DNA of 64,000 nt from an uncultured Acidobacteriota bacterium (GTDB lineage Bacteria; Acidobacteriota; Polarisedimenticolia; JACPZX01): positions 46,699 to 110,698 of the forward strand of contig CAZMRF010000001.1 in assembly GCA_964568735.1 (NCBI GenBank). Reading direction: 5' to 3'. Below the pieces are notes generated by a model that worked only from the letters and a program-made list of their open reading frames with translations, did not search any database and was not told the DNA's origin. Both the position numbers and the translations under genes were made by a program. Positions 9,511-52,568 of this stretch are shown one piece after another; position 1 is the first letter of the stretch; each line of letters opens with the position of its first letter.

Positions 9511-9640
9511 GCGAGGCGCCCAGCGCGATCCGGCGCCCTCCCGGGGGGGTCGTTGACGCCCTTTCAGCCGTTGACCTAGAATGCGCGGCCTGCGCGTACC
9601 TACCGCTTCAGGCTCGGCCGGCCGGGCACAGGAGAACTGG

Positions 9641-9931
9641 ATGGAAGCTCTCGGGATGGTCGAGACGCGCGGCCTGGTCGGCTCAATCGAAGCTGCCGAC
9701 GCCATGGTCAAGGCCGCCAACGTCGTTCTCATCGGGAAGGAGTACATCGGCGCTGGATACGTCACCGTGATGGTCCGCGGCGACGTCGGCGCCGTGAAGG
9801 CCGCCACGGACGCGGGTGCGGCCGCAGCCCGCAAGGTCGGCGAGCTGGTCTCGGTCCACGTGATTCCACGGCCGCACGCCGATGTCGAAGCGATCCTCCC
9901 GGGGGCGGGCGCCCGGGCGCCCCGGAGCTGA
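9641..9931 (+). CDS. Bacterial microcompartment shell protein, BMC-H (PduA/EutM/CcmK type)
   Basis: [27 protein letters not shown]...[23 protein letters not shown] is the canonical BMC-H fold sequence. AGGAGA lies 6 nt upstream of the ATG. Confidence 0.85.
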
Positions 9932-9993
9932 TCGCGCGAGCCGGGGTTCGGCCCGGGCGCTGACGCGGGCAGGATCCTGGAGGTCTCTTCCCG

Positions 9994-11745
9994 ATGGAGG
10001 ATCTCGATCTCCGGTCGATCTCGGAGGCCCGGCGGCTGCTGCAGGCAGCCTCACGGGCGGCGCCCCTGCTGGCCGGGCTCAGCCAGGAGGCGATCGACGC
10101 CATCGTGGACGCGATCCACCGCGCCGCGGTGCCGCGCGCGGAGGAGTGGGCCCGGCTCGCCGTCGAGGAGACCGGCTTCGGGAACGTGGCCGACAAGACG
10201 GCCAAGAACCTCTTCGCTGCCGTCGACGTCCACAGGCACATACGGCCCATGGCCACCGTGGGCATCCTCTCGCGCGACGAGGAGGCCCGGCTCATCGAGA
10301 TCGCGGCTCCGGCCGGCGTCGTCGCCGCGATCATCCCCTGCACGAACCCCACATCGACCGCCATCAACAAGATCCTGATCGCCCTGAAGGCGGCTTGCCC
10401 CATCGTCGTCTCGCCCCACCCTGCCGCCAGGCGATGTGTCGCGGCCGTCTGCTCCGCACTCTCCGAGGCCGCCGTGGCCGCGGGGGCCCCTGAGGGCTCT
10501 CTCGGCTGCATGACGGAGGTTTCGCTTCCCGGCACGCGCGAGCTGATGCAGCACAGGCTCACCGCGGTCATCCTGGCCACGGGGGGAACGGGGCTCGTGA
10601 GAGCGGCCTACTCATCGGGCAAGCCCGCCTACGGCGTCGGGCCCGGCAACGTGCCGGCCTACGTGGATCGAAGCGCCGACATCCCGAAGGCGGCGCGCGA
10701 CATCGTCAACGGGAAGTGCTTCGATCATGGAGTTCTCTGCTCGGCGGAGAATGCCGTCGTCGTCGACGCCCCGGTCGCAGACGTCCTGCGAGCGGCGATG
10801 CGGGCCGAGGGGGCGCACTTTCTCGACCCCGCCGGGAGCCGCAGGCTCTCGGAGCTGATGGTGCCTCCGTCGGGCGGGCTCAACACGGCCATCGTCGGCC
10901 GCAGCGCCGCCGTCATCGCCCAGATGGCCGGGCTCGAGGTGCCGGAGGGCACCCGCTGCCTCGTCGTGCCTCTCGACTCGGTCGGGCCCGGAGCCGCTCT
11001 CTCAAGGGAGAAGCTCTCTCCAGTCCTCGCCTTCTACGTCGAAGAGGGGTGGGAGAAGGCCTGCATTCGCTGCCTGGAGATTCTCAACTACGGCGGGATG
11101 GGGCATACGATGGCCATCCACGCCCGCGACCGCGATCTGATCCTGCGCTTCGCCCTGACGAAGCCGGTCTTCAGAATCGTGGTGAATACACCGGCGGCCG
11201 TGGGCGCCGTGGGCCTCACGACAGGAGTGGAGCCCTCCATGACGCTCGGTTGCGGGGCTCTCGGCGGGAACATCACCTCCGACAACATCACCCCGCGGCA
11301 CCTGGTCAACGTGAAGAGGCTCGCCTTCGAGACACGGCCCTACGAGCGGCCCGGAAGCCAGCCAGCCATCGCCCGCTCCGTTGTCTCCGCCGCCCTGCCG
11401 CAGCCCCCCGCCCCGGAGGAGCCGAGGAAGGCCCCATCACCCGCAGGCATGGCGCCCCCGGCAGCCCTGACCTCGGCCGCGCTGAAGCGTCGTGTTGAGG
11501 CCCTGCTCGAAGCCCGGGGCGCCCTCGACCCACGTGGGCCGGCGCAGACCTCTCCGCCATCTCAGCCGCACGCACCCGCCAGGAAGCAGCCACGGGCGCC
11601 CAGCTCCCCTGCGTCCTTCGTCTGCGAGGCCGATGTCCGGCAGGCGCTGCTCGATCGCCGGAAGATATCGATCAGCGGGCGCACGATCGTGACCCCTTCC
11701 GCACGCGAGCTCGGAGACACCCACCAGGTATTCGTCGAGATCTGA
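9994..11745 (+). CDS. CoA-acylating aldehyde dehydrogenase (EutE/PduP-like) with an unusual 130-aa C-terminal extension
   Basis: IPCTNPTST and FDHGVLC(S)AEN catalytic motifs. The N-terminus lacks the usual encapsulation peptide. The C-terminus has a Pro/Ala linker, an amphipathic helix (LTSAALKRRVEALLEAR), and a tail (VCEADVRQALLDRRKISISGRTIVTPSARELGD) that resembles the N-terminal motif of EutQ-family BMC proteins. Confidence 0.85.
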   Translation: MEDLDLRSISEARRLLQAASRAAPLLAGLSQEAIDAIVDAIHRAAVPRAEEWARLAVEETGFGNVADKTAKNLFAAVDVHRHIRPMATVGILSRDEEARLIEIAAPAGVVAAIIPCTNPTSTAINKILIALKAACPIVVSPHPAARRCVAAVCSALSEAAVAAGAPEGSLGCMTEVSLPGTRELMQHRLTAVILATGGTGLVRAAYSSGKPAYGVGPGNVPAYVDRSADIPKAARDIVNGKCFDHGVLCSAENAVVVDAPVADVLRAAMRAEGAHFLDPAGSRRLSELMVPPSGGLNTAIVGRSAAVIAQMAGLEVPEGTRCLVVPLDSVGPGAALSREKLSPVLAFYVEEGWEKACIRCLEILNYGGMGHTMAIHARDRDLILRFALTKPVFRIVVNTPAAVGAVGLTTGVEPSMTLGCGALGGNITSDNITPRHLVNVKRLAFETRPYERPGSQPAIARSVVSAALPQPPAPEEPRKAPSPAGMAPPAALTSAALKRRVEALLEARGALDPRGPAQTSPPSQPHAPARKQPRAPSSPASFVCEADVRQALLDRRKISISGRTIVTPSARELGDTHQVFVEI

Positions 11746-11928: not shown

Positions 11929-13620
11929 TCAGACGGTGATGGTCCGCGCGGCTGCCATCAAGATCTTGGCCTCCCGGAGGCGCGCCCACCAGCCGGATCT
12001 CCGGATGAGGGCGTCGCAGAGCGAGCGCACCACCGGATCCGACAGGAGCCGCCCCGGCTCGGGGCCGGTGAAGAGGCTCCGCCGCCCGAGGGCTCGCAGG
12101 GCGCCGGCCGCCAGCGGATCCCAGCGTGCGCTCCTCGACAGCTCATTGAGGACTTCCCTCGGGATCGGCGTGCCGAGGAGGCGCCGTGAGAGATCGAGCG
12201 TGGTGCCCAGGCTCCGGCTCGCCGTCCATGAGCGTGCGGACTCCAGGAGGATTCCCCAATCCGGATCCCCGGCGGAATCCACGAGGGCGTCGATGTCGAG
12301 GAGATCCCGAAGCTTGCCGATGAACCGATCCGTGTGCGACAGGTGGATCGCGGCATGGAGGATCTGATCCTCCAGGGAGAGAACGCGGTACTTCCTCCCG
12401 TTCCTTTCGACGACGGCGGCTCTCTCGAGAAGGGGGGCGGGATCCACGTGGAGGCCGGCCGCGGGCCTCGCGAGGCCGCGGTGGATCTCGACCAGCAGCC
12501 GCCCTGCCGAGTCGATCATGGGAACCGCGTGATGGTGGGCATCGTAGAAGTCGCGCCCCCTCGCCGTCCGGATCGCGCGGAACCCCAGCTCTTTCAACAC
12601 CTCGGTGGCGCGCTCGACCTCTTCCTGGCGCACCAGGAGATCGAGATCCTGCATGGGCCGGAGGGCGGGCTGCTCGTAGAGCGTCAATCCGAGGGCCGCG
12701 CCTTTGAGGAGCACCGGCTCGATCCCTGTCCGGCGGAGGGCCTCGACCGTCCGGTCAAGCCCCTCCATCTGGATGGCCATCATGCAGGCGGCTGCGTGGG
12801 CTCCCTTCGCGAGCGCGGCACGCACCGCCGGCGGGACCCGGTCCCTGAGATCGTCCAGGGCAAAGGTGCGGTGCAGGAGGGGTATCAGGCCGAGCGCGGC
12901 GGCGGTGGGGACAAGCCTCTCCCATGCGACATCCTGGAGCAGACTCTCCCGCAGGGCCTCACGCTCCGCGGGAACGAGCCGGACCCTCGCCGCCATGACG
13001 AGCAGCTTCTCTTCCGGCCTGAGGGGGAGTCCTCCCGTCCTGCGCGCTCGATCGGGGCGGCTCTGGTGGTAGAGCAGAGCAGGGAGACTCAGAAGCAGCC
13101 GCGACGCGATCGGCCTTCCCCGCCAGCCTCCGAGGGAGAGGAGCCGCCCCTCCGTCCAGGCGATTGGCCCCGACAAGTAGGCCGCGAGGCGGCCGGCGAC
13201 ACGGCCGGGCAGCGTGTTCGTCAGGACGGCATCTCCATCCGGGCGATGAACCGCGACGACTCTGCCGACGACGTCTTCCACCGGGATCCAGGAGGCTTCG
13301 CGCCAGGAGAGAGGATCCCCCTTGACCTTGAGCCAGCCCCATCGCCGGCCTCTGCGGCCCAGCCCGATCACCCGGTGGGCGACGAGATGCGCTGCGGTCG
13401 TGTAGAGGACCACGTCCCCTTTCGAGAGTCCTTCGCGCCCGAAGCGGACCGTCAGGCTCGAGCCGTGAGGGATGAGCGGTGACATGCTCAGGCCGGAGAC
13501 CGCGATCTCGGCCCACTTCCCCTCGCGTGCCCAGAGGGCGAGGATGCCGAGCGTCAGCTCGCGGGAGAGGTCCCGTCCTGCGCGGACACTGACAACCTTG
13601 CCGGCGGCATCACCGGTCAT
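11929..13620 (-). CDS. Fusion protein: S24/S26 (LexA/signal-peptidase-like) peptidase domain plus an uncharacterised nucleotidyltransferase-family domain
   Basis: N-terminal SGLSMSPLIP...KGDVV matches the S24/S26 Ser-Lys dyad context. The C-terminal region has a nucleotidyltransferase-like DLDLLV motif. GGAG RBS and an 11-nt gap to the upstream gene. Confidence 0.65.
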   Translation of the reverse strand: MTGDAAGKVVSVRAGRDLSRELTLGILALWAREGKWAEIAVSGLSMSPLIPHGSSLTVRFGREGLSKGDVVLYTTAAHLVAHRVIGLGRRGRRWGWLKVKGDPLSWREASWIPVEDVVGRVVAVHRPDGDAVLTNTLPGRVAGRLAAYLSGPIAWTEGRLLSLGGWRGRPIASRLLLSLPALLYHQSRPDRARRTGGLPLRPEEKLLVMAARVRLVPAEREALRESLLQDVAWERLVPTAAALGLIPLLHRTFALDDLRDRVPPAVRAALAKGAHAAACMMAIQMEGLDRTVEALRRTGIEPVLLKGAALGLTLYEQPALRPMQDLDLLVRQEEVERATEVLKELGFRAIRTARGRDFYDAHHHAVPMIDSAGRLLVEIHRGLARPAAGLHVDPAPLLERAAVVERNGRKYRVLSLEDQILHAAIHLSHTDRFIGKLRDLLDIDALVDSAGDPDWGILLESARSWTASRSLGTTLDLSRRLLGTPIPREVLNELSRSARWDPLAAGALRALGRRSLFTGPEPGRLLSDPVVRSLCDALIRRSGWWARLREAKILMAAARTITV

Positions 13621-13631
13621 GGAGGACTCCC

Positions 13632-16600
13632 CTACTGGCCGTAGTGGCCCAGCGGGCCCTGGCCCGTGAGGGGATCGTACGCCACGACGAGGTAGTCGTG
13701 GTCTGGGGCGTCGGCGAAGGCTCCGGCGTGGGTGAAGAGCGGAGATCCGGTCACCCTGACGAGGTGGAAGGGGGCGAAGGTGTCCTTGGGGGTTCCGGCG
13801 TCGTCCGCGACGTAGACCCGGTAGAGCGCGCAGTGGTGCGTGCTCTCGATGTCCCCCCACGTGAGGACGAGGTCAGCACCGGAAGCCGAAGCCTGGACGT
13901 TGCCCAGCTCGGGCAGCGCCGACGTGCAGACGATGTCGTCGCCGCCATGGCCGGCCCTTGGATCGGTCTCACTGCCGTCGCGCCGTCCGTTGAAGTTGCG
14001 GTCCTCGGCGCCGTCCGCGACCCCGCCCCCGTCGGTGTCCGCGTCCGTGGGGTCGGTGGTCGTGTTCGGATCCGCATCGGGCACGAAGAATCCCTGGCCT
14101 ACGTTGGTTCCCGGCTGAGGCACGGTCACTCCCGACTCGGTGCCGTCGAAGATCCCGTCGCCGTCGGAGTCGGGGTCGAGCCCGTTGACGAACCCGTCGC
14201 CGTCCTGGTCGACAGCGAAGGCGGGCTCCAGGCCGTCCCGGAGGCCGTCGTCGTCGCTGTCTCCGTCGAGGGGATCCGTCCCTGCGAGCTCCTCGTCCCG
14301 GTCAATGAGCCCGTCGGCGTCGCTGTCGAGCGCCAGGACCGTGGCCGGGTCGCCGAAGAAGGTCAGCTCCCTGATGTTGTTGAGGTTGGCGGGGTTCAGC
14401 GGCTGGGTGACGGCGGAGATGACCGCCATGGTGGCCGCGCGCCCGAGGACGTACTCGCGGTCGAGGAAGACGTTCCTGAAGAACCAGTCCCCGATGCTGG
14501 AGTAGTCGGAGATGTTCCCGAGGGCGGCGGGGGCCCATGCGGCCATGGCGCCGCTGGAGGGAGCCAGCACCATGGACTCCGCGAGGGAGTAGTCCACGTG
14601 CCCCGGGCCCGCGGCGGCGAGATCGATGAAATAGCCGTTGATGCAGTTCAGCGACGCCACGAAGCTCAGCCGCGAGGTCTGATCGAGGCTGTTCGGATCA
14701 TCGGAGAAGCACGGAGCCACGAAGCCGCTCGCCCAGGGACACTCCGCTGCCCACTGCGTGGTGCTGCCGTGGCCCAGGTAGGCCGTCACCAGGGAGCCGT
14801 CGTCGAAGCCGTCATGGATGAGCGAGCGCATGAGGGTGACACCCACCTGCGCCATGAAGATGTCGTTCGCGGCCATCGTCGGGGGCATGAGGCTGGCGAA
14901 TGAGTTGAGGATGGCCTCGAAGGCGGAATCGTCGTTGTCCGCGACGAACGTCGACTGCGCATTCAGCAGGGAGACGGGCGGAGCCGTCTCGTAGGCGATG
15001 AGCTTCGAGATCATCGCAGCGAGACTCGCACCCGATCGTGCCGGGAGGCGGCCGACGCTCAGCTCGGGCAGGAGGTCGGCGCCCGCGGTCGTCCCGTACT
15101 CGTTGTCGCTGGGGGTCTCGCCGATGGTGGGGAGGACCACCAGCTTCGCCGGTACGAACTGAGGCACGCCCGAGCCGAGGCTGTTCAGGTAGTCCACGTG
15201 GGCATCCCCGGCGAGCAGGACGAACTCAGGCGCCGCGCCGGGGTAGTTGGCCCACGCATTGTCGAGGAAGGCCTCGATCGCCGACGTGTTCAGGACTCCG
15301 AAGTTGAACTCGTCGTAGATGTCCTCGGTCGTCGCGACGAGAGTCCGATAACCCTGCCCCTGCCGGTGCGCCACGAGCGGCGCGAGCGCGGTGAGGAAGG
15401 CGGGATCCGGAGGCGTGATGACGATCCAGTCCGCGCCGTTGGGATCGGCCGCGAGGTTGCTGGGGACGTCCTGCGCGACGCTCACCGGGGGCTTGAGGCC
15501 CGCGACCGTCGCGGCCGCATAAAGGCGATTCGTCGTCAGGCTCTCCTGGAAGGCGATGTCGAAGGGGCCGCTCCCCGTGATTTGTCCCGGCGGGACCGAG
15601 ATCTTCTTGAGGGCGTTGGGATCCGTCACGTCGTAGAGGAGGATCCCAGAGCCGGAGTATCCCGTGAAGGCGAACCTGAACGCGCCCGGCCCCTCCCCGG
15701 CCGCGACGAGGTTGTCGGCCACGACCTTGTAGGTTCTACGGTAGGTGAGCTCGATGAAGTTGAAATAGACCTGATCGATCGGAGAGAAGTCGCCCACCAC
15801 GAACATGCGCACCGTGTTGCCGCCGCTCGACACCGTCGAGCTCGCGAGGTTTACGGAATGGTCGAACGGGATGAAGCCCGTCCAGACCTGATCATCCACC
15901 TGGGGTCCGTTGAGGAAGAGCCGCGTGTGGTGCGTCACGCCGGTCCTCCCCTGCACGTTGGCGCGCAGGTTGATCGTGTGGGGCACCGGCGAGACCTCGG
16001 TGAGCGTGATCGGGTAGGTGAGGTCCTGGCTGTTGGGGTCCCCGGTGTTCTGGCGCTTCCACCACCAGTGATCGATCGCTCCGGGAGGCACGTTCTGGGT
16101 GTAGATCAGGTCATCTTCCCTGTGCACGACCGTTTGGAACGAGGCGGGGGTAGGGGCCGGCGCGCCGAAGGTGCCATCGCGCACCGGGGGCCGGACAGGC
16201 GACCCGTCGAAGTGCAGCCAGTAGACGTTCCTGCGCGTCTGACGACCTGTCGCGGCCTTGCCGTAGAAGACGACCCTGTCGCCGGGATCGAAGACACCAT
16301 CGCTCTCGCCCGTGACGTCGACCGGAATGGGCTGGCCCATCAGCTCCAGCCGGAAGTCCCTCGGGTCGAGCATGCCGACGTTGATCCCCGCGGCCTGGAG
16401 GTCCGCAGCGGCAACTCCGTACAGTCCGTCCGCCTCGACCGTGATCTTGACGGGGGGAATCATCGACCCCGATTCCGTGAAGGCGCGGATCTGGGTCGCC
16501 TCAGCTTCCAATCCCGCGGCTCCGTCCAGCCCCTCCTGGCGGTCCAGGAGGGGGAGGATCTCCGCCGCGTTGAGAATGGCGAGGGACTGGGCCGCCCGGT

Positions 16601-17186
16601 GAATCCGGAGCCTTCCCTCCGGCCGCTCCCTGCGAGGGGGCGTGGCCTTCGCGTCGGGCACGAAGTCGATCCGGACCTCGAGGCGAGGGTGGTGGCGAAG
16701 CTCGTTGCCGGGAGCCGTTCGGACGGGATAGAGCCGGACCTCGGCGATCTGCAAATCCCGCATCCAACCGGTCCAGGCCAGCTCCGCCGACCTGGCGGGA
16801 TAACGCCCGCGGGGAGGAGGCATCGACGCAGCGACTCCGGGCATCTCCTCGTCTTCCAGACCGAAATACCTCACGACGGTCGCTTCGGGCCGGCCGGAGG
16901 GCAAGGCATGGGAGCCGCCTCTTACGCCGCTCAGGACCGGGCGCATGCCTTCGGGGATCCCGATGAGCGCGGAGGCGTAGGGAAGCCGTGGCAGCCAGGG
17001 CTCTTCCAGCTGCTTCAGCCCGGGCAGGCTCACCTGGACCCTCCCTTCCTGCGTCGAGGAGGGGGTCTGGAAGGGCCGCGGTGTCTCCAGGACGAGCGTG
17101 ACGCCGCCCGCGTCGGACGAGGCCAGGCGGACCTCCTGGGCAAGCAGCGCGGTCGAGGTGGCAAGCAGCGTCAGCGCTGCGGCCAT
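13632..17186 (-). CDS. Secreted peptidase C25 (gingipain-family) cysteine protease with thrombospondin-type-3-like Ca-binding repeats
   Basis: Signal peptide MAAALTLLATSTALLAQ. YLGHGSTTQW and SLNCINGYF match the C25 His/Cys catalytic motifs. The C-terminus has D.D.DG..D repeat runs. Confidence 0.8.
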   Translation of the reverse strand: MAAALTLLATSTALLAQEVRLASSDAGGVTLVLETPRPFQTPSSTQEGRVQVSLPGLKQLEEPWLPRLPYASALIGIPEGMRPVLSGVRGGSHALPSGRPEATVVRYFGLEDEEMPGVAASMPPPRGRYPARSAELAWTGWMRDLQIAEVRLYPVRTAPGNELRHHPRLEVRIDFVPDAKATPPRRERPEGRLRIHRAAQSLAILNAAEILPLLDRQEGLDGAAGLEAEATQIRAFTESGSMIPPVKITVEADGLYGVAAADLQAAGINVGMLDPRDFRLELMGQPIPVDVTGESDGVFDPGDRVVFYGKAATGRQTRRNVYWLHFDGSPVRPPVRDGTFGAPAPTPASFQTVVHREDDLIYTQNVPPGAIDHWWWKRQNTGDPNSQDLTYPITLTEVSPVPHTINLRANVQGRTGVTHHTRLFLNGPQVDDQVWTGFIPFDHSVNLASSTVSSGGNTVRMFVVGDFSPIDQVYFNFIELTYRRTYKVVADNLVAAGEGPGAFRFAFTGYSGSGILLYDVTDPNALKKISVPPGQITGSGPFDIAFQESLTTNRLYAAATVAGLKPPVSVAQDVPSNLAADPNGADWIVITPPDPAFLTALAPLVAHRQGQGYRTLVATTEDIYDEFNFGVLNTSAIEAFLDNAWANYPGAAPEFVLLAGDAHVDYLNSLGSGVPQFVPAKLVVLPTIGETPSDNEYGTTAGADLLPELSVGRLPARSGASLAAMISKLIAYETAPPVSLLNAQSTFVADNDDSAFEAILNSFASLMPPTMAANDIFMAQVGVTLMRSLIHDGFDDGSLVTAYLGHGSTTQWAAECPWASGFVAPCFSDDPNSLDQTSRLSFVASLNCINGYFIDLAAAGPGHVDYSLAESMVLAPSSGAMAAWAPAALGNISDYSSIGDWFFRNVFLDREYVLGRAATMAVISAVTQPLNPANLNNIRELTFFGDPATVLALDSDADGLIDRDEELAGTDPLDGDSDDDGLRDGLEPAFAVDQDGDGFVNGLDPDSDGDGIFDGTESGVTVPQPGTNVGQGFFVPDADPNTTTDPTDADTDGGGVADGAEDRNFNGRRDGSETDPRAGHGGDDIVCTSALPELGNVQASASGADLVLTWGDIESTHHCALYRVYVADDAGTPKDTFAPFHLVRVTGSPLFTHAGAFADAPDHDYLVVAYDPLTGQGPLGHYGQ

Positions 17187-17221
17187 GGAGCGGTTGCGCC
17201 GTGCATCTCTCACAGTTTCCC

Positions 17222-18406
17222 CTATTCCCTTACGATCGAGGCGATGGCGATGGCGATGTCCGAAGGGCTGCCCGAGGCGACGCGCCACGCGCTGACCGAC
17301 CCGATCCTCGATGCCAGCTCGAAGACGACGGAAGCCACCCTGCCTCCGTGTGCAGCCATCAGGCGGCCCCCCTCCCCACGGTTGAGCAGGTCACGCACCA
17401 GGAAGACCAGGAGCGAGGAGACGGGAACCTCCTCGATCTCGGGCGGGCCCGGGCGCCGAGGCACTGGCGGCCGGGATTCCTCGATGTAGAGGATCGACTC
17501 CCGATGACGTCCCTGGACGTCGATCAAGTCGGCGGCGGTCCGCCCCGTGCGGGCGAAGCTCACGGCGAGGGTTGGAAACGGGCGAGCGGGCAAGTCCTCT
17601 ATCGTCGAGGCACCTACCCTCAGCAGATCGTCCTTGAGATCTCCGGCAGCACCGGCGGCGAGGGCCATCTCGTAGCGGACATCCCCTTCCGCGCGAGCCG
17701 ACGACCATCCCTCGGGATCCAGGTAGAAGAGGTAGGAAGGAGGGCAGGCGGCGGCCGGCAGCTTCGCGCCGAGTGCCACGGGATCGACGAGCCACCGATG
17801 CGGCAGCTCGAAGGCATCGGGAAGTCCGGCGCGAACCCCTTGCGGCAGCCCGACTCCGCCCGACTTGCGGATTCCCACGGCCCGGGGGTACGGGAGAAGG
17901 AGGCCCGAGCGGCGATCGATCGGAGCGGCATCGTCGCTCAGGAAATCATATCCGCGCCGGATCAGCTCGAGGACGAGGGTCGACTTGCCGGCGAAGGCGG
18001 GCCCGGCGAGAATGATCCCTTGCCCCTTCCGGGAGACAGCGGCGCCGTGGAGAAGCAGGCTCCCCTCGATGCGGTCCATGATCGCGCCCAGGAGGAACAG
18101 GAAGGCCTGGTTCTCGGGTGAGGGTGATCCCCGGAGGTCCGTCACGCGGGAGCCGGCTTCGGCGCGCGCTCCTCCGGATCCAGAGAGCCGGACGTCGAGC
18201 TCGAGAGGATCGCCCGACTCCTCGGGGGGGAACCAGCGCCAGGCGTGATCGAAGAGAGAGAGGATCCGGGGGCTGTCGCTCCGCAGGCGGACGTCCACTC
18301 CCAGGATCCCGAACCTGCTCACGGAGTGAGGCGTCGAGTCCCCTTCGGTCCGGGCATGAAGCGGTCGCTGGATGGCTCCCTCGGATTTCATCGTGCGGGC
18401 GTGCAC
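17222..18406 (-). CDS. HPr kinase/phosphorylase-related P-loop protein (HprK C-terminal-domain-like)
   Basis: HGAAVSRKGQGIILAGPAFAGKSTLVLELIRRGYDFLSDD is an HprK-like Walker-A region. No HprK N-domain is present. Confidence 0.7.
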   Translation of the reverse strand: MHARTMKSEGAIQRPLHARTEGDSTPHSVSRFGILGVDVRLRSDSPRILSLFDHAWRWFPPEESGDPLELDVRLSGSGGARAEAGSRVTDLRGSPSPENQAFLFLLGAIMDRIEGSLLLHGAAVSRKGQGIILAGPAFAGKSTLVLELIRRGYDFLSDDAAPIDRRSGLLLPYPRAVGIRKSGGVGLPQGVRAGLPDAFELPHRWLVDPVALGAKLPAAACPPSYLFYLDPEGWSSARAEGDVRYEMALAAGAAGDLKDDLLRVGASTIEDLPARPFPTLAVSFARTGRTAADLIDVQGRHRESILYIEESRPPVPRRPGPPEIEEVPVSSLLVFLVRDLLNRGEGGRLMAAHGGRVASVVFELASRIGSVSAWRVASGSPSDIAIAIASIVRE

Positions 18407-18508
18407 CGTCTCTCCCGAAGGAGCAGGAGGCTGGAAGCGACTAAAGGGCCGACGAGGCGTCCGATCCCGCCGGTGCCGAAGGTCCCGATCCCCCAGCTCC
18501 GGCCCGGC

Positions 18509-18814
18509 CTACCCTTCCAGTAATCCTCGCTCGGAGAAGTTCGCGAGAATGTGGAGCACATCGGCTCCCAGTTCAAGCTGCCGGCCGCCGCTGAAGGCCT
18601 GGTTCAGCGCTTCGGCGATCCCCGACGGGTCTCGCGTTCCGTCGCAGAGCTTCCAGGTGAAGAGGGCCGTCCGGTTCAGGATGTGGACCATCCCCGCCTC
18701 CCGATCGTAGAGGAGTCCCTCCTCTCCAACCTCCTGGAGCGCAAGGTCGCGTCGCGCCCTCGGCCGGGCCTGGGAGACACCCTCCCCAGGCCCGGTGGCG
18801 CCCTGCGGGGACAT
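18509..18814 (-). CDS. PqqD-family protein (RiPP recognition element-like)
   Basis: LYDREAGMVHILNRTALFTWKLCDGTRDPSGIAEAL matches the PqqD fold consensus. About 100 aa. Confidence 0.75.
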   Translation of the reverse strand: MSPQGATGPGEGVSQARPRARRDLALQEVGEEGLLYDREAGMVHILNRTALFTWKLCDGTRDPSGIAEALNQAFSGGRQLELGADVLHILANFSERGLLEG

Positions 18815-18822
18815 CCGGTCCG

Positions 18823-20211
18823 TCAGTCCTCGACGACGAGGAACCAGGTCTGACTGTTGAGCGTGCCGCCCTGTGCCGAGCGGCCGACGACCTTCCAGTA
18901 GACCCCGCCCTCGCCGGCCACGGCCATCTGGTGCACCTCAGAGCGCTCGTGCGGGCTGAGCCTCCGGGTGCGCCCCGCTCCCGCCGGGATCTCCATCGTG
19001 GACTCCTGCGGGAACGTCGGATCCGCCGACATGAGGACTCTCGTGGGGACGGGCTGGTCGGACTGCCACTTGAGGGTCACGACGCGGCCGGCCTTCGAGT
19101 CGTAGGCGGGCTGCACGAGCCGCAGCGGAGGCGCCGGCGGGTTCGGTACCGTCCGCTCTGGCGGATGGATCGTGTTGAAGCCGCCGAGATCGAAGTCCTC
19201 GAGCATGTAGTGGTACTTCACGCCGTTGACCGCCGTCATGTCTTCGAAGCTGTAGGAGGCCCCGCTGACGTCGCTTCCCAGCCCCGGGAGCAGCGCGTTG
19301 GTGACTCGCTCGAACCTGCCCGAGCGCGCTTCCTGTCTCAGAACCGCGAAGCCGGCGTTGTCGATCTCCGAAGAGGTGTCCCACCGGACCGTGACTCTGC
19401 CGTCGCCCGGCTCCACGGAGAAGGACGAAAGCGAGATGAGGAGATCTCCGGGGCCGCAGGGGGTGATGAACCCGCTGCCGCCCTGGACTCCGGCCTGGAA
19501 GCGCGCCACGGCGATCATGACCTTGTCCCCCGGCGGGATGATGGAGGGCAGGGAGGTGAAGGAGCATGCCGTGTAGCTGCTGATGTTCCCGGCGACCTGG
19601 ATCGTGAAGGTGACGCTCTGGCCGGCAAGGATCTCGAGCGGATTGCCACCGCTGGCGCCCGTCGAAATCCCCTTGTTGGCGAGGAGGACGTTGAAGGCCC
19701 CCATACCATCCATCTTGAGGTTCTTCAAGGAAGAGGAGGGGTGCGAGTCGACGACGTTGTCCGTCCGGTTGCTGTCGAAGGCGCGCTCCCAGACGAGAGC
19801 TCCCGTCTCTGACAGCAAGGTCATTCCCGTCACACCCGGAGGCGTGTTGAAGGAGAGGCCGGTGAGGCTGGCGGTGGTCGTCGTTCGGTTGAAGACCTGG
19901 AGGGTCAGGATGCCGGTAGTCCGGGTGTAGGAGAAGACGAAATCGGCCTCGGCGATCGTCCCGTCATCAAGTCGGCCGGGGTTGCTGAAGGCCGAGCCAT
20001 TGCTCGAGAGGGAGCCCTGGCCGCCCAGCTGCATCCCGCTCACCGTGGTGTCCTGGCTGGGACAGTTGTTCTGAGTCGGGACGCACAATCGCTGTGCCCA
20101 GGCCGGGCTGGAAGCGACCGAGATCAGTCCGATCGCGAAGATGACCATGACGAGAAGCCGTACCTTGGTGCCACCGACGTCGATCGACATCTTGGGTATC
20201 CCCAGGCGCAT
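18823..20211 (-). CDS. Secreted protein of unknown function
   Basis: Cleavable signal peptide (MSIDVGGTKVRLLVMVIFAIGLISVASSPAWAQ) followed by a 430-aa Ser/Thr/Gly-rich beta-type sequence. It is tightly packed with the PqqD gene (8-nt gap). Start ambiguous (20211 or 20190). Confidence 0.55.
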   Translation of the reverse strand: MRLGIPKMSIDVGGTKVRLLVMVIFAIGLISVASSPAWAQRLCVPTQNNCPSQDTTVSGMQLGGQGSLSSNGSAFSNPGRLDDGTIAEADFVFSYTRTTGILTLQVFNRTTTTASLTGLSFNTPPGVTGMTLLSETGALVWERAFDSNRTDNVVDSHPSSSLKNLKMDGMGAFNVLLANKGISTGASGGNPLEILAGQSVTFTIQVAGNISSYTACSFTSLPSIIPPGDKVMIAVARFQAGVQGGSGFITPCGPGDLLISLSSFSVEPGDGRVTVRWDTSSEIDNAGFAVLRQEARSGRFERVTNALLPGLGSDVSGASYSFEDMTAVNGVKYHYMLEDFDLGGFNTIHPPERTVPNPPAPPLRLVQPAYDSKAGRVVTLKWQSDQPVPTRVLMSADPTFPQESTMEIPAGAGRTRRLSPHERSEVHQMAVAGEGGVYWKVVGRSAQGGTLNSQTWFLVVED

Positions 20212-20338
20212 CCTCCGGGCCGCGGAGAGCGCAGTTACTTTCGTTGACGCTCCGGCGTGGCCCCTGCCGGTATGCCGGGACCGCCGAGGCCTCCTCACCC
20301 CTCCGCCGGGCTCACCTCGCGCGGCGGGACCTTCTCAC

Positions 20339-49426: not shown

Positions 49427-50704
49427 TCAGGAAACCTGGCTGACGCTGTCCTTCTTGCCGGCCGATCCCGGCGAGCTCTTCATCCAGGAAGGGAGCGATA
49501 TCCGCGGGAGGTAGTCCCAGGTGCGATCGTTCAGCTTGCAGCACCTGGAGCACTTCGGAAGGAGAGCGTGGTCCTTGATGAGCTTCCTGAACTCCCGGTA
49601 GGGCTCGTCGTTCCAGATCTTCCTGAAAGACTTGTCCCGGACGTTGCCGAGCCAGGTGTCGATCTGGCAGGAGTAGATGTCCCCGAAGGGATTCACCCGC
49701 GTCTCGTACCAGGGAAGGAAGCACTTGTTCGTGTAGAAGTACATCGGATCGTTGAACCGCGACTCCAGCTCGTGGTCTTCGAGGGGCGGATTGAACTCGA
49801 GCTGGATGCCCTTCTCCGCCGCCTTCGCCCGGGCCTTCCGAAGCTGGTCCTTCATGATCGCCACGCTCATCTTGCGGAGATGCGCGGGAATCGCCTGGTC
49901 GCCGTAGTTGGCCTGCCCCCTCAGGGTGATGAGGTCGGTGGCCTTGTTGATGGGCTCGTCGCCGAAGAAGAGATAGCCGTAGTTCACCAGCCGGATCCCG
50001 CACTCCTCGGCCACGTCGATGATCTCCGCGATGTGCTCCTGATTCAGGGCGGAGACCGCGCAGCTGAATGAGATCTTGGGGCGGTCCTTTCCCTTCCGCT
50101 CCTTCCAGGCCTGCAGCTTCTTGACGTTCTTGACCAGGCGGGCGTAGCCCGTGTCCGACCCGCGCACCTCGTTGTGCACCAGCTCGGGCCCGTCCAGCGA
50201 GATCGTCAGGGCATCCACCTTCGACTCGACGAAGGCATCGCAGATCTCGTCCGTCATTACCGTGCCGTTGCTGATCATGGAGACCCAGAAGCCGTTCTTC
50301 TTCGCGTGGCGCATGATGGAGGCCGCGTTCTTCTTGATGAGCGGCTCGCCCCCGGTGATGTTCACCTTCCGAACGCCGAAGGCCTTCAGCTCGTCGAAGA
50401 GCTTGACGTAGTCCTCGTATTCCAGCTCGGACCCGCGGACCTCCTTGGGGTCGGCGCCCTCCGGGCCGCGGTTCATCGGAAAGCCTCCGTCCACGACGGC
50501 ATTACTGACGACGAAGCTGCACATCTGGCAGCGGAGATTGCACCTGTAGGTCAGCTCGATGTTGACGTTGGTGGGGGGAAGGGCGTATCCGAGGCCGAAG
50601 TTGTAAGGCACCCAGTAGTAGGGAACCAGGAGGCGCTTGGAGGTGAGCCCCACCAGCTTGAGGGCGCGATAGGTGGTGTGAAGCACCTTGTTGGTGGCGA
50701 TCAT
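49427..50704 (-). CDS. Radical SAM enzyme with C-terminal SPASM/twitch Cys cluster
   Basis: Core CNLRCQMC (CX3CX2C), ITGGEPL, and a C-terminal CFLPW...CQ...C..CC Cys-rich domain. Confidence 0.8.
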   Translation of the reverse strand: MIATNKVLHTTYRALKLVGLTSKRLLVPYYWVPYNFGLGYALPPTNVNIELTYRCNLRCQMCSFVVSNAVVDGGFPMNRGPEGADPKEVRGSELEYEDYVKLFDELKAFGVRKVNITGGEPLIKKNAASIMRHAKKNGFWVSMISNGTVMTDEICDAFVESKVDALTISLDGPELVHNEVRGSDTGYARLVKNVKKLQAWKERKGKDRPKISFSCAVSALNQEHIAEIIDVAEECGIRLVNYGYLFFGDEPINKATDLITLRGQANYGDQAIPAHLRKMSVAIMKDQLRKARAKAAEKGIQLEFNPPLEDHELESRFNDPMYFYTNKCFLPWYETRVNPFGDIYSCQIDTWLGNVRDKSFRKIWNDEPYREFRKLIKDHALLPKCSRCCKLNDRTWDYLPRISLPSWMKSSPGSAGKKDSVSQVS

Positions 50705-50921
50705 GAAATGTGGGCTCCAGGAGTGGGCGCGTGCGGGGCAGGAGGCAGATCCTGACGTGGCGTTCCACCCCGCGGCTCCGGCTGCTGCCGTGCTGAGCGG
50801 CCCCTGTGGCTGAGGCCTCCGTGGAGCAGGTCCCCCCGAATGCCGTGAATATACCCGGGGAACCCTGCGGGAGCAAGGCAGTCGGCCGGAAGGGCCTGTC
50901 GTGCGGGGCCGCTGGTGCGAT

Positions 50922-52568
50922 TCACCCCGTCGAGGGGCGGCCGGCCCCCGTTCGAGGCCCCGACGGAGCCGACAGGGGCGAATCGCCGCCAGGCCCCGCT
51001 CCGGCGCCCGGGAGAGCCGCGGAATCATCGATCCGCTCCGTCCAGAGCCGGCAGTTCCCGTTGAGGCACTCCCCCGTCGTCAGGTCGAACCGGTAGTGGT
51101 GGTTGAGGCAGGTGATGATCGTGCCCTCTACCGGAGCGCCCTCCAGTGAAGCGCCCGCATGGGGGCACTTCCGGGCGATCCGGAAGCGCCCTTCGGAGGT
51201 CTCGACGACAATCGACTCGCCTTCCGAGGGGCGCGTCTCGTACTTCTCGATCGCGGCGAGGGCCTCCGAATCGGCCCACTTCAGCCAGGCGAGGAGGTGA
51301 TCGTTGTAGACGTCCGGATCGCGCCGCGCCGAGAACCTCAGCGACAGGAAGAAGTCCTCCCAGGGGAGGTCGTGCGCGAGGATCCGGTGGAGCCAGATCG
51401 CGTCGAGGCGGATCGTGTAGTTCGCCTGCTCGCCCTCGTAGCGCTTCACCTCGAAGCGACGGGGCCGGCACCGGACCAGGTAGTCCCCCCCATGCCGCCC
51501 CTCCGCCACGAAGCGGAGGTCCATGTCGATCCGGCGGAGGAAGTAGTCGCTCATGCTCCCCAGCTTCGTGAAGTAGGCCCGGAGATCCTCGAAGAGGTCT
51601 CTTTCCGGCCCCTCGATCGCGGCGACGTGCGCCTCGATCGAAGGCCTCATCCTGCGCGCGTAGTCCTCCAGGTAGGCCTCCTTCCGATCGAAGGAGAACT
51701 CGTCGTGCATCCGCGCATCCGGCTCGTGGAGCCCGCTCGCCAGATCGAGCCCGTCACCCGGAAGGAGGATCTCAAGCCGGCCGGCATACCCGCGTCCCGC
51801 GAGCCATTCCACGCTTTCCTTCTGGTCGGGGAAGATCCCGCTTCCCGCCATTCCGTCGTTGCAGTGGAAGATCGGCGCGTCGAGGAATGCCGCGGGGCCC
51901 GCCGCGGGCAGCCCGATGCGGGGCTCGAACCTCTCGAGCATCCGGTAGGCGTACTCCAGCTTGACCCGTCTCTTCTCGGCGGAGTGCTCGACCATGCGTG
52001 CCGGCTCGTACTCGTAGCAGATGGGATACCAGCTCGCGCCCGCGCACTGGAGCAGCAGCCCGTCGACTTTCCCTCCGACACGCTCCTTGAGCTGGTCGAC
52101 CTGCTGCACCGTCAGGCGCGCATCGTTCATGTCCACGAAGACCGAGTCGGGGCCGAGGATCGAAATGACCGCGTCCTGGTTGGTCGGAGACTCCTCGAGC
52201 GTGAAGATCACGCGCAGCCCATCACCGAGCACGTGCTCCCTCCCCTCCTCGACCTCGATGACGGGGTTCCCGCACACCGCGGAGAGCTTCCGCCTCAGGT
52301 TGCTGGAGGGGTAGGCGGGGACCACGACGGGGGTCTGCGGCGGGAGCTTCGCTGTAAGGAAGTGGGGATCGAGGTGATCCAGGTGCTCGTGCGAGAGGAC
52401 GACGGCGGCGAGGTCCGTGTAGTCGCGATCCCAGAGGTGGTGATTGCAGGGGAACTGGAGCCAGGCCGCGTGGTAGGCGCCCAGGGGCGAGAGCCAGGGA
52501 TCACAGGCCACGCGGGTCCTCCCCGAGGAGGCGATGAAGCCGGCATGGCCGAGAAACTCTATGCGCAT
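50922..52568 (-). CDS. Fusion of an MBL-fold metallo-hydrolase domain with a C-terminal Rieske [2Fe-2S] domain
   Basis: SHEHLDHLD is the MBL zinc motif. The C-terminal CPHAGASL...CLNHHYRFD is a Rieske CXH...CXXH arrangement. Confidence 0.75.
   Translation of the reverse strand: MRIEFLGHAGFIASSGRTRVACDPWLSPLGAYHAAWLQFPCNHHLWDRDYTDLAAVVLSHEHLDHLDPHFLTAKLPPQTPVVVPAYPSSNLRRKLSAVCGNPVIEVEEGREHVLGDGLRVIFTLEESPTNQDAVISILGPDSVFVDMNDARLTVQQVDQLKERVGGKVDGLLLQCAGASWYPICYEYEPARMVEHSAEKRRVKLEYAYRMLERFEPRIGLPAAGPAAFLDAPIFHCNDGMAGSGIFPDQKESVEWLAGRGYAGRLEILLPGDGLDLASGLHEPDARMHDEFSFDRKEAYLEDYARRMRPSIEAHVAAIEGPERDLFEDLRAYFTKLGSMSDYFLRRIDMDLRFVAEGRHGGDYLVRCRPRRFEVKRYEGEQANYTIRLDAIWLHRILAHDLPWEDFFLSLRFSARRDPDVYNDHLLAWLKWADSEALAAIEKYETRPSEGESIVVETSEGRFRIARKCPHAGASLEGAPVEGTIITCLNHHYRFDLTTGECLNGNCRLWTERIDDSAALPGAGAGPGGDSPLSAPSGPRTGAGRPSTG

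Follow-up and report, generated by a model that had tools for sequence, protein, structure and literature searches.

As described by Sutter et al. (2021, Nat Commun 12:3809; PMC8217296), the ACI type of bacterial microcompartment (BMC) comprises 125 loci, is exclusive to Acidobacteria and comes mainly from subdivisions 4 and 6 of this group, which as a whole can form up to 60% of soil bacterial communities. Its main locus encodes an aldolase (PF00596) with a C-terminal encapsulation peptide, a hydroxyacid dehydrogenase (PF00389/PF02826), three unknown proteins, BMC-H and a triplet of BMC-P proteins. The aldehyde dehydrogenase (AldDH) does not appear in this list and lies consistently on a satellite locus (Supplementary Data 2 of that study), sometimes or often with a BMC-H gene and occasionally with a fourth BMC-P. 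The ACI AldDH bears an encapsulation peptide close to its C-terminus, followed by a "~50 aa domain of unknown function", which was left unassigned (PMC8217296). The present analysis concerns a gene pair of this kind on the forward strand of a stretch of DNA of 64,000 nucleotides with 68% G+C, hereafter the window, where an intact BMC-H gene (9641-9931) is followed, after an intergenic gap of 62 nt, by an intact gene for a CoA-acylating AldDH (9994-11745). This pair is probably the AldDH satellite locus of an ACI-type BMC in a Polarisedimenticolia-like acidobacterium, with an enzyme tail that would likely dock on the shell.

Two types of AldDH are distinguished among BMCs, type I (IPR013357) with the encapsulation peptide at the C-terminus and type II with the peptide at the N-terminus, and the ACI enzyme was placed next to that of the MIC3 type, as the ACI aldolase was next to those of HO and MIC3 (PMC8217296). 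We take IPR013357 to correspond to the NCBIfam family TIGR02518. In metabolosomes of the PVM, HO and MIC3 types, an AldDH is likewise paired with a class II aldolase whose encapsulation peptide is C-terminal; however, that AldDH is encoded by the main locus and has no counterpart of the terminal mini-domain described below.

The BMC-H and aldehyde dehydrogenase genes

Both gene identities agree with a preliminary description of the locus. The BMC-H gene encodes 96 residues with a single BMC domain (PF00936, E 1.3e-28), whose best NCBIfam match is the EutM-like family NF012018 (131.5 bits) and which is 70% identical to Escherichia coli EutM over its first 90 residues, compared without gaps. The protein carries the motifs KAAN, at residue 24, and PRPH, at residue 76 (interface/inter-hexamer motifs), as in a basal BMC-H shell hexamer, where these motifs are defined as KAAN and (P/A)RPH (PMC8217296).

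The AldDH gene encodes 583 residues and a stop codon, matches PF00171 and has more than 100 homologues with full-length coverage. Its best-scoring family is TIGR02518, with 546 bits over residues 3-448 against profile positions 1-446. This score is under the trusted cut-off of the family (620.1 bits), and thus the enzyme is related to the EUT2 acetaldehyde dehydrogenase without being its equivalog. Since the alignment starts at profile position 1, the AldDH has no N-terminal extension, and in the AlphaFold2 model the N-terminal helix belongs to the catalytic core, in line with the earlier claim that no N-terminal encapsulation peptide is present. Two alignments were used to delimit the regions of the protein, A1 with 20 sequences and A2 with 107 (the AldDH and 106 homologues). 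The catalytic domain spans residues 1-448 (9994-11337, +), with the catalytic Cys249, in GVLCSAEN, invariant in all 107 sequences; its block-mean pLDDT (predicted local distance difference test) is mostly above 80, falling below 50 at residues 405-441. The enzyme resembles the type I AldDHs of TIGR02518/IPR013357, a family dominated by EUT2, in its best family match, in a core collinear from residue 1 and in a C-terminal targeting element, but it differs from them by the lower score and by a tail that is longer by ~90 residues and holds an extra folded domain. One homologue (P0016, 627 aa) shows, at columns 301-351 of A1, an internal insertion of ~50 residues repeating the catalytic-cysteine segment (…DIITGKTFDHGVLCSSENAVIAD…), which points to a tandem duplication or an artefact of the assembly.

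Scanned in six frames, the window yielded exactly one BMC-H and one AldDH, with no further BMC domain or AldDH, no BMC-P and no class II aldolase. Neither a PduL-type phosphotransacylase (PTAC) nor an Fe-ADH, two families that the six-frame scan did not cover, was among the 52 open reading frames (ORFs) run against Pfam. These scans confirm that the pair stands apart from other microcompartment genes within the 64 kb, as had been proposed.

Compared with the ACI satellites, the locus has the same phylum, an AldDH apart from the other BMC genes with BMC-H adjacent, no N-terminal encapsulation peptide, and a predicted C-terminal one, the helix at residues 494-507, followed by a domain of about 50 residues at 541-583. 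It is this exact match in taxon, gene pair and tail with a published description that supports the satellite reading. Two differences are seen: the lineage is Polarisedimenticolia-like and not of subdivisions 4 or 6, and the window lacks the fourth BMC-P of Pyrinomonadaceae satellites such as L074. Given the match, the "minimal two-gene microcompartment module" and the C-terminal targeting signal, both offered as novel in the preliminary description, turn out to be catalogued features, as the pair is listed as the ACI satellite and both the type I enzymes and exactly such a tail were already recorded (PMC8217296). The same description had hesitated between a satellite and a reduced shell-enzyme pairing. 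The satellite option is the one given in the literature for exactly this architecture, but the mark proposed for it, a main locus elsewhere with its own AldDH, does not hold, because the ACI main locus lists none.

The C-terminal tail and its EutQ-like mini-domain

Beyond the catalytic core, the AldDH continues for ~135 residues that match no Pfam or NCBIfam family, and this extension is present in all 106 aligned homologues (554-607 aa). In A1 and A2, two variable Pro/Ala-rich stretches separate two conserved elements. The first linker (residues 449-493; 11338-11472, +) is not conserved and has a pLDDT below 50 at 456-492. It is followed by the predicted encapsulation-peptide helix, amphipathic, at residues 494-507 (SAALKRRVEALLEA; 11473-11514, +), with a block-mean pLDDT of 73-83 and a conserved face, in which, among the 107 sequences, L497 is found in 98, R500 in 95, I/V/L501 in 107, L505 in 94 and R508 in 84, with F/L at 504. 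The second linker, Pro-rich and likewise not conserved (residues 508-540; 11515-11613, +), has a pLDDT below 50 at 514-532 and leads to the C-terminal mini-domain (residues 541-583; 11614-11742, +), predicted as strand-helix-strand-strand-helix-strand. Thus, the amphipathic helix that the preliminary description had recognized in the Pro/Ala-rich tail is upheld, and neither an extension missing from the orthologues nor a tail without helix, which that description had named as grounds for rejection, was found.

The last 43 residues have the consensus FVCEaDVRqA....RKI.I..RTIVTPsARDLG..HrVFV, with F542, E545, D547, A551, T567 and P568 invariant in A2. The mini-domain is modelled with a pLDDT of 90-97 in the full-length protein and of 97.4 by itself, consistent with an independently folding unit, and a Foldseek comparison with the PDB gave no match better than E 0.5. 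When 1.84 billion representative sequences were searched with the tail domain, 713 matches were obtained, of which all 150 listed fall at the C-terminal end of the protein. The 17 that were inspected all have the ACI-type tail, most of them with AldDH catalytic sequence and a few looking chimeric or frameshifted, and no new tail-domain architecture appeared among the listed matches.

A described relative of this mini-domain is the N-terminus of EutQ. As reported by Yang et al. (2025, Sci Adv 11:eadx9774; PMC12487888), EutQ begins with the helices H1 (residues 9-21) and H2 (22-41), which in Salmonella interact with the shell, a contact proposed to lie at the EutM-EutL interface, whereas H3 and H4 serve to bind EutC and EutE through their encapsulation peptides. 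Residues 1-99 are sufficient for targeting green fluorescent protein to Eut BMCs. When residues 9-41 are deleted, the shell is separated from the cargo and EutQ stays with the cargo aggregate; when residues 62-99 are deleted and H1/H2 retained, the protein colocalises with shell assemblies (PMC12487888).

The resemblance of the tail end to EutQ, pointed out in the preliminary description, was confirmed in both directions. With hhalign, the mini-domain aligns with EutQ N-termini at a probability of 97.6% and E 4.4e-12 over 38 columns with 26% identity (96.8% in a local run), so that AldDH residues 542-579 correspond to residues 4-43 of E. coli EutQ. The tail hidden Markov model (HMM) matches the N-termini of two EutQ ORFs confirmed by Pfam (PF06249, with the cupin at about residues 73-217), and in six of six EutQ homologues with a cupin domain from the sampled loci the module is N-terminal. 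Reciprocally, an HMM built from seven EutQ N-termini alone recovers, from 17,049 ORFs, 36 of 44 extreme C-termini of ACI AldDHs at E <0.001, the best at 6e-7. Neither the AldDH nor its tail matches PF06249 or a cupin family in Pfam or NCBIfam. As only the N-terminal H1/H2-like module is common to both, the AldDH is not a EutQ protein.

Both proteins have a homologous module of ~40 residues with the signature xDVRxA...I...xIxTPxARD/ELxxxxxh, joined by a flexible linker to the remainder. However, the module is at the C-terminus of an AldDH in one case and at the N-terminus of a cupin acetate kinase in the other, and the AldDH lacks the peptide-binding helices H3/H4, having instead an encapsulation helix upstream of the module. 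In addition, AlphaFold2 predicts an alpha/beta mini-domain, whereas helices are described for EutQ (PMC12487888). The tail would recruit the AldDH, its flexible first linker bearing the short encapsulation helix and its second linker the compact 43-residue domain. Because of its homology to EutQ H1/H2, this domain most likely docks on shell proteins, so that the enzyme would tether itself to the shell and possibly other peptide-bearing cargo too. Read most economically, the sequence comparisons would give the ACI AldDH two elements in cis, an encapsulation helix and a shell anchor of the EutQ type.

It is less likely, though far from negligible, that the locus is an ACI satellite whose mini-domain is no shell anchor, the helix alone being responsible for targeting and the domain serving in cargo-cargo oligomerisation, in regulation of the AldDH or in binding of a partner enzyme. 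Sutter et al. assign targeting to the encapsulation peptide and leave the domain unexplained (PMC8217296), other type I AldDHs have the C-terminal peptide alone, as do those of SPU6-like loci with ~488 residues (L071 and similar loci), and the mini-domain has neither a solved structure nor a fold match. Moreover, all four EutQ helices are needed in Salmonella, and H1/H2 may then not act autonomously (PMC12487888). Against this, EutQ without residues 9-41 stays with the cargo aggregate and off the shell (PMC12487888), and the module is found at a free end of proteins from at least five unrelated BMC-associated families, a pattern that fits a portable tag better than an enzyme-specific regulator.

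These other occurrences were seen with the EutQ N-terminal HMM. It matches the C-terminus of a PduL-type PTAC (PF06130; L018, 5193-6215, +) and those of PF02441 flavoproteins of ~250-280 residues (L012, 13303-14076, +; L024, 12381-13217, +; L042, 11720-12454, +; weakly, L007, 11087-11836, +), in BMC loci of Clostridia, Propionibacteria-like bacteria and Poribacteria. It also matches the N-termini of proteins of ~120 residues encoded just upstream of the BMC-P pair in SPU6-like loci of Anaerolineae (L071, 12002-12361, +, with similar ORFs in L037, L063, L072, L076, L080 and L082). Short SPU6 proteins of ~130 residues from Chloroflexi are recorded as 'EutQ-like' (PMC8217296, Supplementary Data 2); as in the AldDH tail, the module comes with a Pro-rich linker and an amphipathic helix resembling an encapsulation peptide, but these proteins are free-standing, with the module N-terminal and the helix C-terminal, in reverse order and with no enzyme fused. 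Among 16 E. coli Eut proteins, only EutQ (residues 7-39) and EutT (residues 3-41) match the profile of the ACI tail. The N-terminus of EutT (MKDFITEAWLRANHTLSEGAEIHLPADSRLTPSARELLESRHL; L083, E. coli K-12, 19157-19306, -) has TPSAREL in common with the window tail and aligns in hhalign at 89% and E 2e-6, which suggests that the adenosyltransferase may use the same module. The label MIC3, considered for the Anaerolineae loci, was rejected because a DeoC-type gene and the ~120-residue EutQ-like protein mark them as SPU6-like, and Pfam PF15953 (PDU_like) was rejected as the family of the module, with one sub-threshold match on a flavoprotein and none on the AldDH.

Taken together, it is tentatively suggested, at somewhat less than even chances, that the domain is a portable shell-docking module fixed to the ends of unrelated BMC proteins, namely the N-termini of EutQ and EutT, the C-termini of PduL-type PTACs and flavoproteins, the small SPU6 proteins and the ACI AldDH. 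The AldDH, presumably oligomeric, would then act as a shell-cargo tether and take the role of EutQ, CcmN, CsoS2 or the PduB N-terminus, with the BMC-H as its dedicated docking partner, a relationship that would account for the joint occurrence of the two genes as a satellite. No paper linking the occurrences across these protein families was found in an incomplete survey of the literature, and priority is not claimed.

Conservation of the pair across Acidobacteriota

The AldDH has thousands of homologues, and the tail is conserved among them, as the best 120, nearly all of 554-607 residues, cover 97-100% of the query. Those with a name among the best listed are almost all from Acidobacteriota (Polarisedimenticolia and Vicinamibacterales). 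The entire neighbourhood that runs from MnmA over BMC-H and AldDH as far as the nucleotidyltransferase and peptidase C25 is retained in three relatives (L001, L090 and L091; assemblies GCA_973521125.1, GCA_975957375.1 and GCA_036505635.1), where the AldDH is 87% identical in one metagenome-assembled genome (MAG), 68% in a second and 60% in the Polarisedimenticolia MAG GCA_036505635.1. This synteny places the window in or near the class Polarisedimenticolia.

When species-representative genomes were scanned with the BMC-H as query, 80 loci were obtained, spread over many phyla because BMC-H is so strongly conserved. In every Acidobacterial locus the BMC-H gene lies directly 5' of the AldDH gene, and the tail is found on every Acidobacterial AldDH with its 3' end inside the contig, three of them split by frameshifts. 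In total, ~30 Acidobacterial loci of species representatives have a BMC-H gene directly followed by a tail-bearing AldDH gene, and the unrelated contexts in which this pair is embedded number at least five, with flanks different from those of the window in Vicinamibacterales-like genomes, in another lineage on contigs of 1.3-3.9 Mb, in Terriglobales and in Pyrinomonadaceae. All GTDB loci with the same pair belong to Acidobacteriota, and the AldDHs of sampled BMC loci from Firmicutes, Chloroflexi, Actinobacteria and Spirochaetes lack the tail domain, the nearest non-Acidobacterial enzymes in the sample being those of SPU6-like Chloroflexi, at ~49-56% identity.

It is hardly credible that the AldDH is a cytosolic acetaldehyde dehydrogenase whose gene lies by chance, and with no functional link, next to that of an orphan shell protein. 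The unrelated housekeeping and envelope genes on both sides would fit such an accident, but the conservation of the pair across Acidobacteriota classes in differing contexts effectively refutes it, and the tail has two BMC-specific elements.

Some variation of the locus was also observed. The split AldDHs, from three Acidobacterial MAGs (L013, 10397-12434; L029, 10334-12218; L059, 10717-12267), run over two or three frames and are either assembly frameshifts or pseudogenes, with the tail domain recognisable in the last frame. In Pyrinomonadaceae (L074, 12433-16221, +; also L043, L045, L055, L058 and L059), the pair is extended by genes for BMC-P, an ACT-domain protein, a zinc-ribbon protein, a DUF711 (PF05167) protein, a 188-residue protein and a second BMC-H, with a two-component system on the opposite strand; the ACT and DUF711 proteins are not mentioned as microcompartment neighbours in the ACI description (PMC8217296). 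A conserved ORF of 150-183 residues with no Pfam match lies directly 3' of the AldDH gene in L084-L089 (12339-12807, +) and L091 (11655-12206, +). It could be an additional satellite component, and the window has no equivalent of it.

Main loci were sought in several ways. All Acidobacterial matches of the 80-locus scan were further satellites, with no main locus among them. A class II aldolase taken as seed from a Chloroflexi SPU6-like locus gave Anaerolineae-type matches only, and the search for BMC-H homologues, with look-ups of P0450 and P0438 (both on many contigs), gave only satellites of BMC-H and AldDH. One could therefore suppose a stand-alone reduced system with no main locus at all, in which BMC-H sheets, tubes or vertex-less shells scaffold the AldDH. 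In its favour are the main locus never recovered, the stable embedding of the pair among housekeeping genes, a lineage outside the subdivisions from which ACI is mainly reported, and no BMC-P or other BMC gene found in the 64 kb or within ~10 kb of the pair in L001, L090 and L091. However, distance from the main locus is the defining trait of the ACI satellite, the searches lacked an ACI seed sequence and whole-genome reach and are not negative evidence, and the conserved encapsulation helix implies other partners. Such a reduced system is considered unlikely, and the satellite of an ACI-type BMC remains the preferred reading.

Several points nevertheless weigh against a shell-docking ACI satellite. 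The lineage looks different from subdivisions 4 and 6, the main-locus searches for this genome and its close relatives, limited by the lack of an ACI main-locus seed and of a whole-genome scan, gave satellites or Chloroflexi loci, and an exact look-up of the window AldDH found no match on record. A score below the TIGR02518 cut-off (546 vs 620) establishes neither the substrate nor equivalence to EUT2. As for the docking, the stretch homologous to EutQ is short, with about 38 columns and 26% identity, and the EutQ-only HMM matches the tail of the window AldDH itself only weakly (E 0.027). The shell binding of EutQ H1/H2 is drawn from deletion phenotypes and from binding assays with full-length EutQ, with no structure of the isolated module (PMC12487888), and the whole of the support is drawn from sequence and homology.

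Expression signals, surroundings and significance

Regarding the gene calls, the BMC-H gene almost certainly starts at ATG 9641 and not at 9581, the start given before, because a ribosome-binding site AGGAGA lies at 9630-9635 (+), 5 nt 5' of this codon, and the orthologues of L001, L090 and L091 are called at 96-98 residues. Position 9581 was rejected as the start codon; it falls within the -10 hexamer of a candidate sigma-70-like promoter, TTGACG-18 nt-TAGAAT (9553-9582, +), in the 130-nt gap 3' of a DUF2520 gene. This promoter is putative, by consensus match alone, with 10 of 12 consensus positions and one site found against 0.0 expected from 50 shuffles. A second ribosome-binding site, GGAGG (9979-9983, +), precedes the AldDH start codon by 10 nt; both sites were read from the sequence. 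The two genes are probably co-transcribed from their own promoter. A 'weak hairpin' between them (9935-9960) had been thought to set a shell-to-cargo ratio, an idea that did not survive analysis: the 71-nt intergenic RNA has a folding energy of -30.4 kcal/mol, where shuffled sequences average -31.5 (z = 0.34), 126 of the 200 shuffles are at least as stable, and no terminator-like site was found. The hairpin was thus rejected as an attenuator.

The flanking genes are unrelated to microcompartments, as noted earlier, and are of housekeeping and envelope functions. Upstream there are MnmA, an FHA protein, a NifS-like protein, IleRS, Lgt, a RluD-like protein and the DUF2520 protein; IleRS was assigned by synteny with L001, as was LspA, which was outside the scan. 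Convergent with the AldDH gene lies a cluster on the reverse strand (11929-20298, -), in synteny with the AldDH within the Polarisedimenticolia-like lineage. It encodes a PF14907 nucleotidyltransferase with a weak signal-peptidase-like N-terminal region, a 1218-residue peptidase C25 (assigned by synteny with L001), an HprK-related kinase (weak TIGR04352), a PqqD-family chaperone (weak TIGR04353) and a 491-residue protein with no assignment, and it resembles an uncharacterised 'HPr-rel-A' peptide-modification system. Farther on (23003-47000, mostly -) there is a large exopolysaccharide or capsule cluster, with a beta-helix/NosD protein, PGA_cap, several GT4 glycosyltransferases, a DegT aminotransferase, Wzy, a UDP-GlcNAc 2-epimerase, a Wzz/GNVR protein with a ParA-like tyrosine-kinase module, Poly_export/SLBB, Polysacc_synt_2 and two OMP beta-barrel proteins. 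At 49427-52568 (-), a 533-residue radical SAM/SPASM protein adjoins a 548-residue protein combining metallo-beta-lactamase, SCP2-like and Rieske parts, and the two may be a peptide or cofactor maturation pair.

Within the ACI-type compartment, the EutM-like BMC-H hexamer would add to the shell facets. A main locus outside the window would be expected to supply another BMC-H, three BMC-P vertex proteins and the signature enzymes, a class II aldolase and a hydroxyacid dehydrogenase. The AldDH would oxidise to acyl-CoA an aldehyde made inside the compartment. Its substrate is probably other than ethanolamine-derived acetaldehyde; if the analogy with aldolase-containing BMCs holds, it would be an aldehyde derived from a sugar phosphate, for example lactaldehyde.

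To our knowledge, the ACI microcompartment has no known substrate and has not been the subject of an experimental study. The locus is a member of the described ACI satellite class, outside the lineages where this class is mainly reported, and as such it adds another lineage to the catalogue and nothing beyond. What may be of more general value is that the "domain of unknown function" of the ACI AldDH can tentatively be read as a EutQ-type shell anchor. It is also suggested as a small, confidently predicted and possibly independently folding tag, distinct from the amphipathic peptides, for loading engineered shells. If the anchor reading is true, it would provide a concrete model of cargo tethering in ACI microcompartments, with the AldDH as a self-tethering cargo, and this self-tethering could explain why the enzyme travels with a BMC-H of its own.

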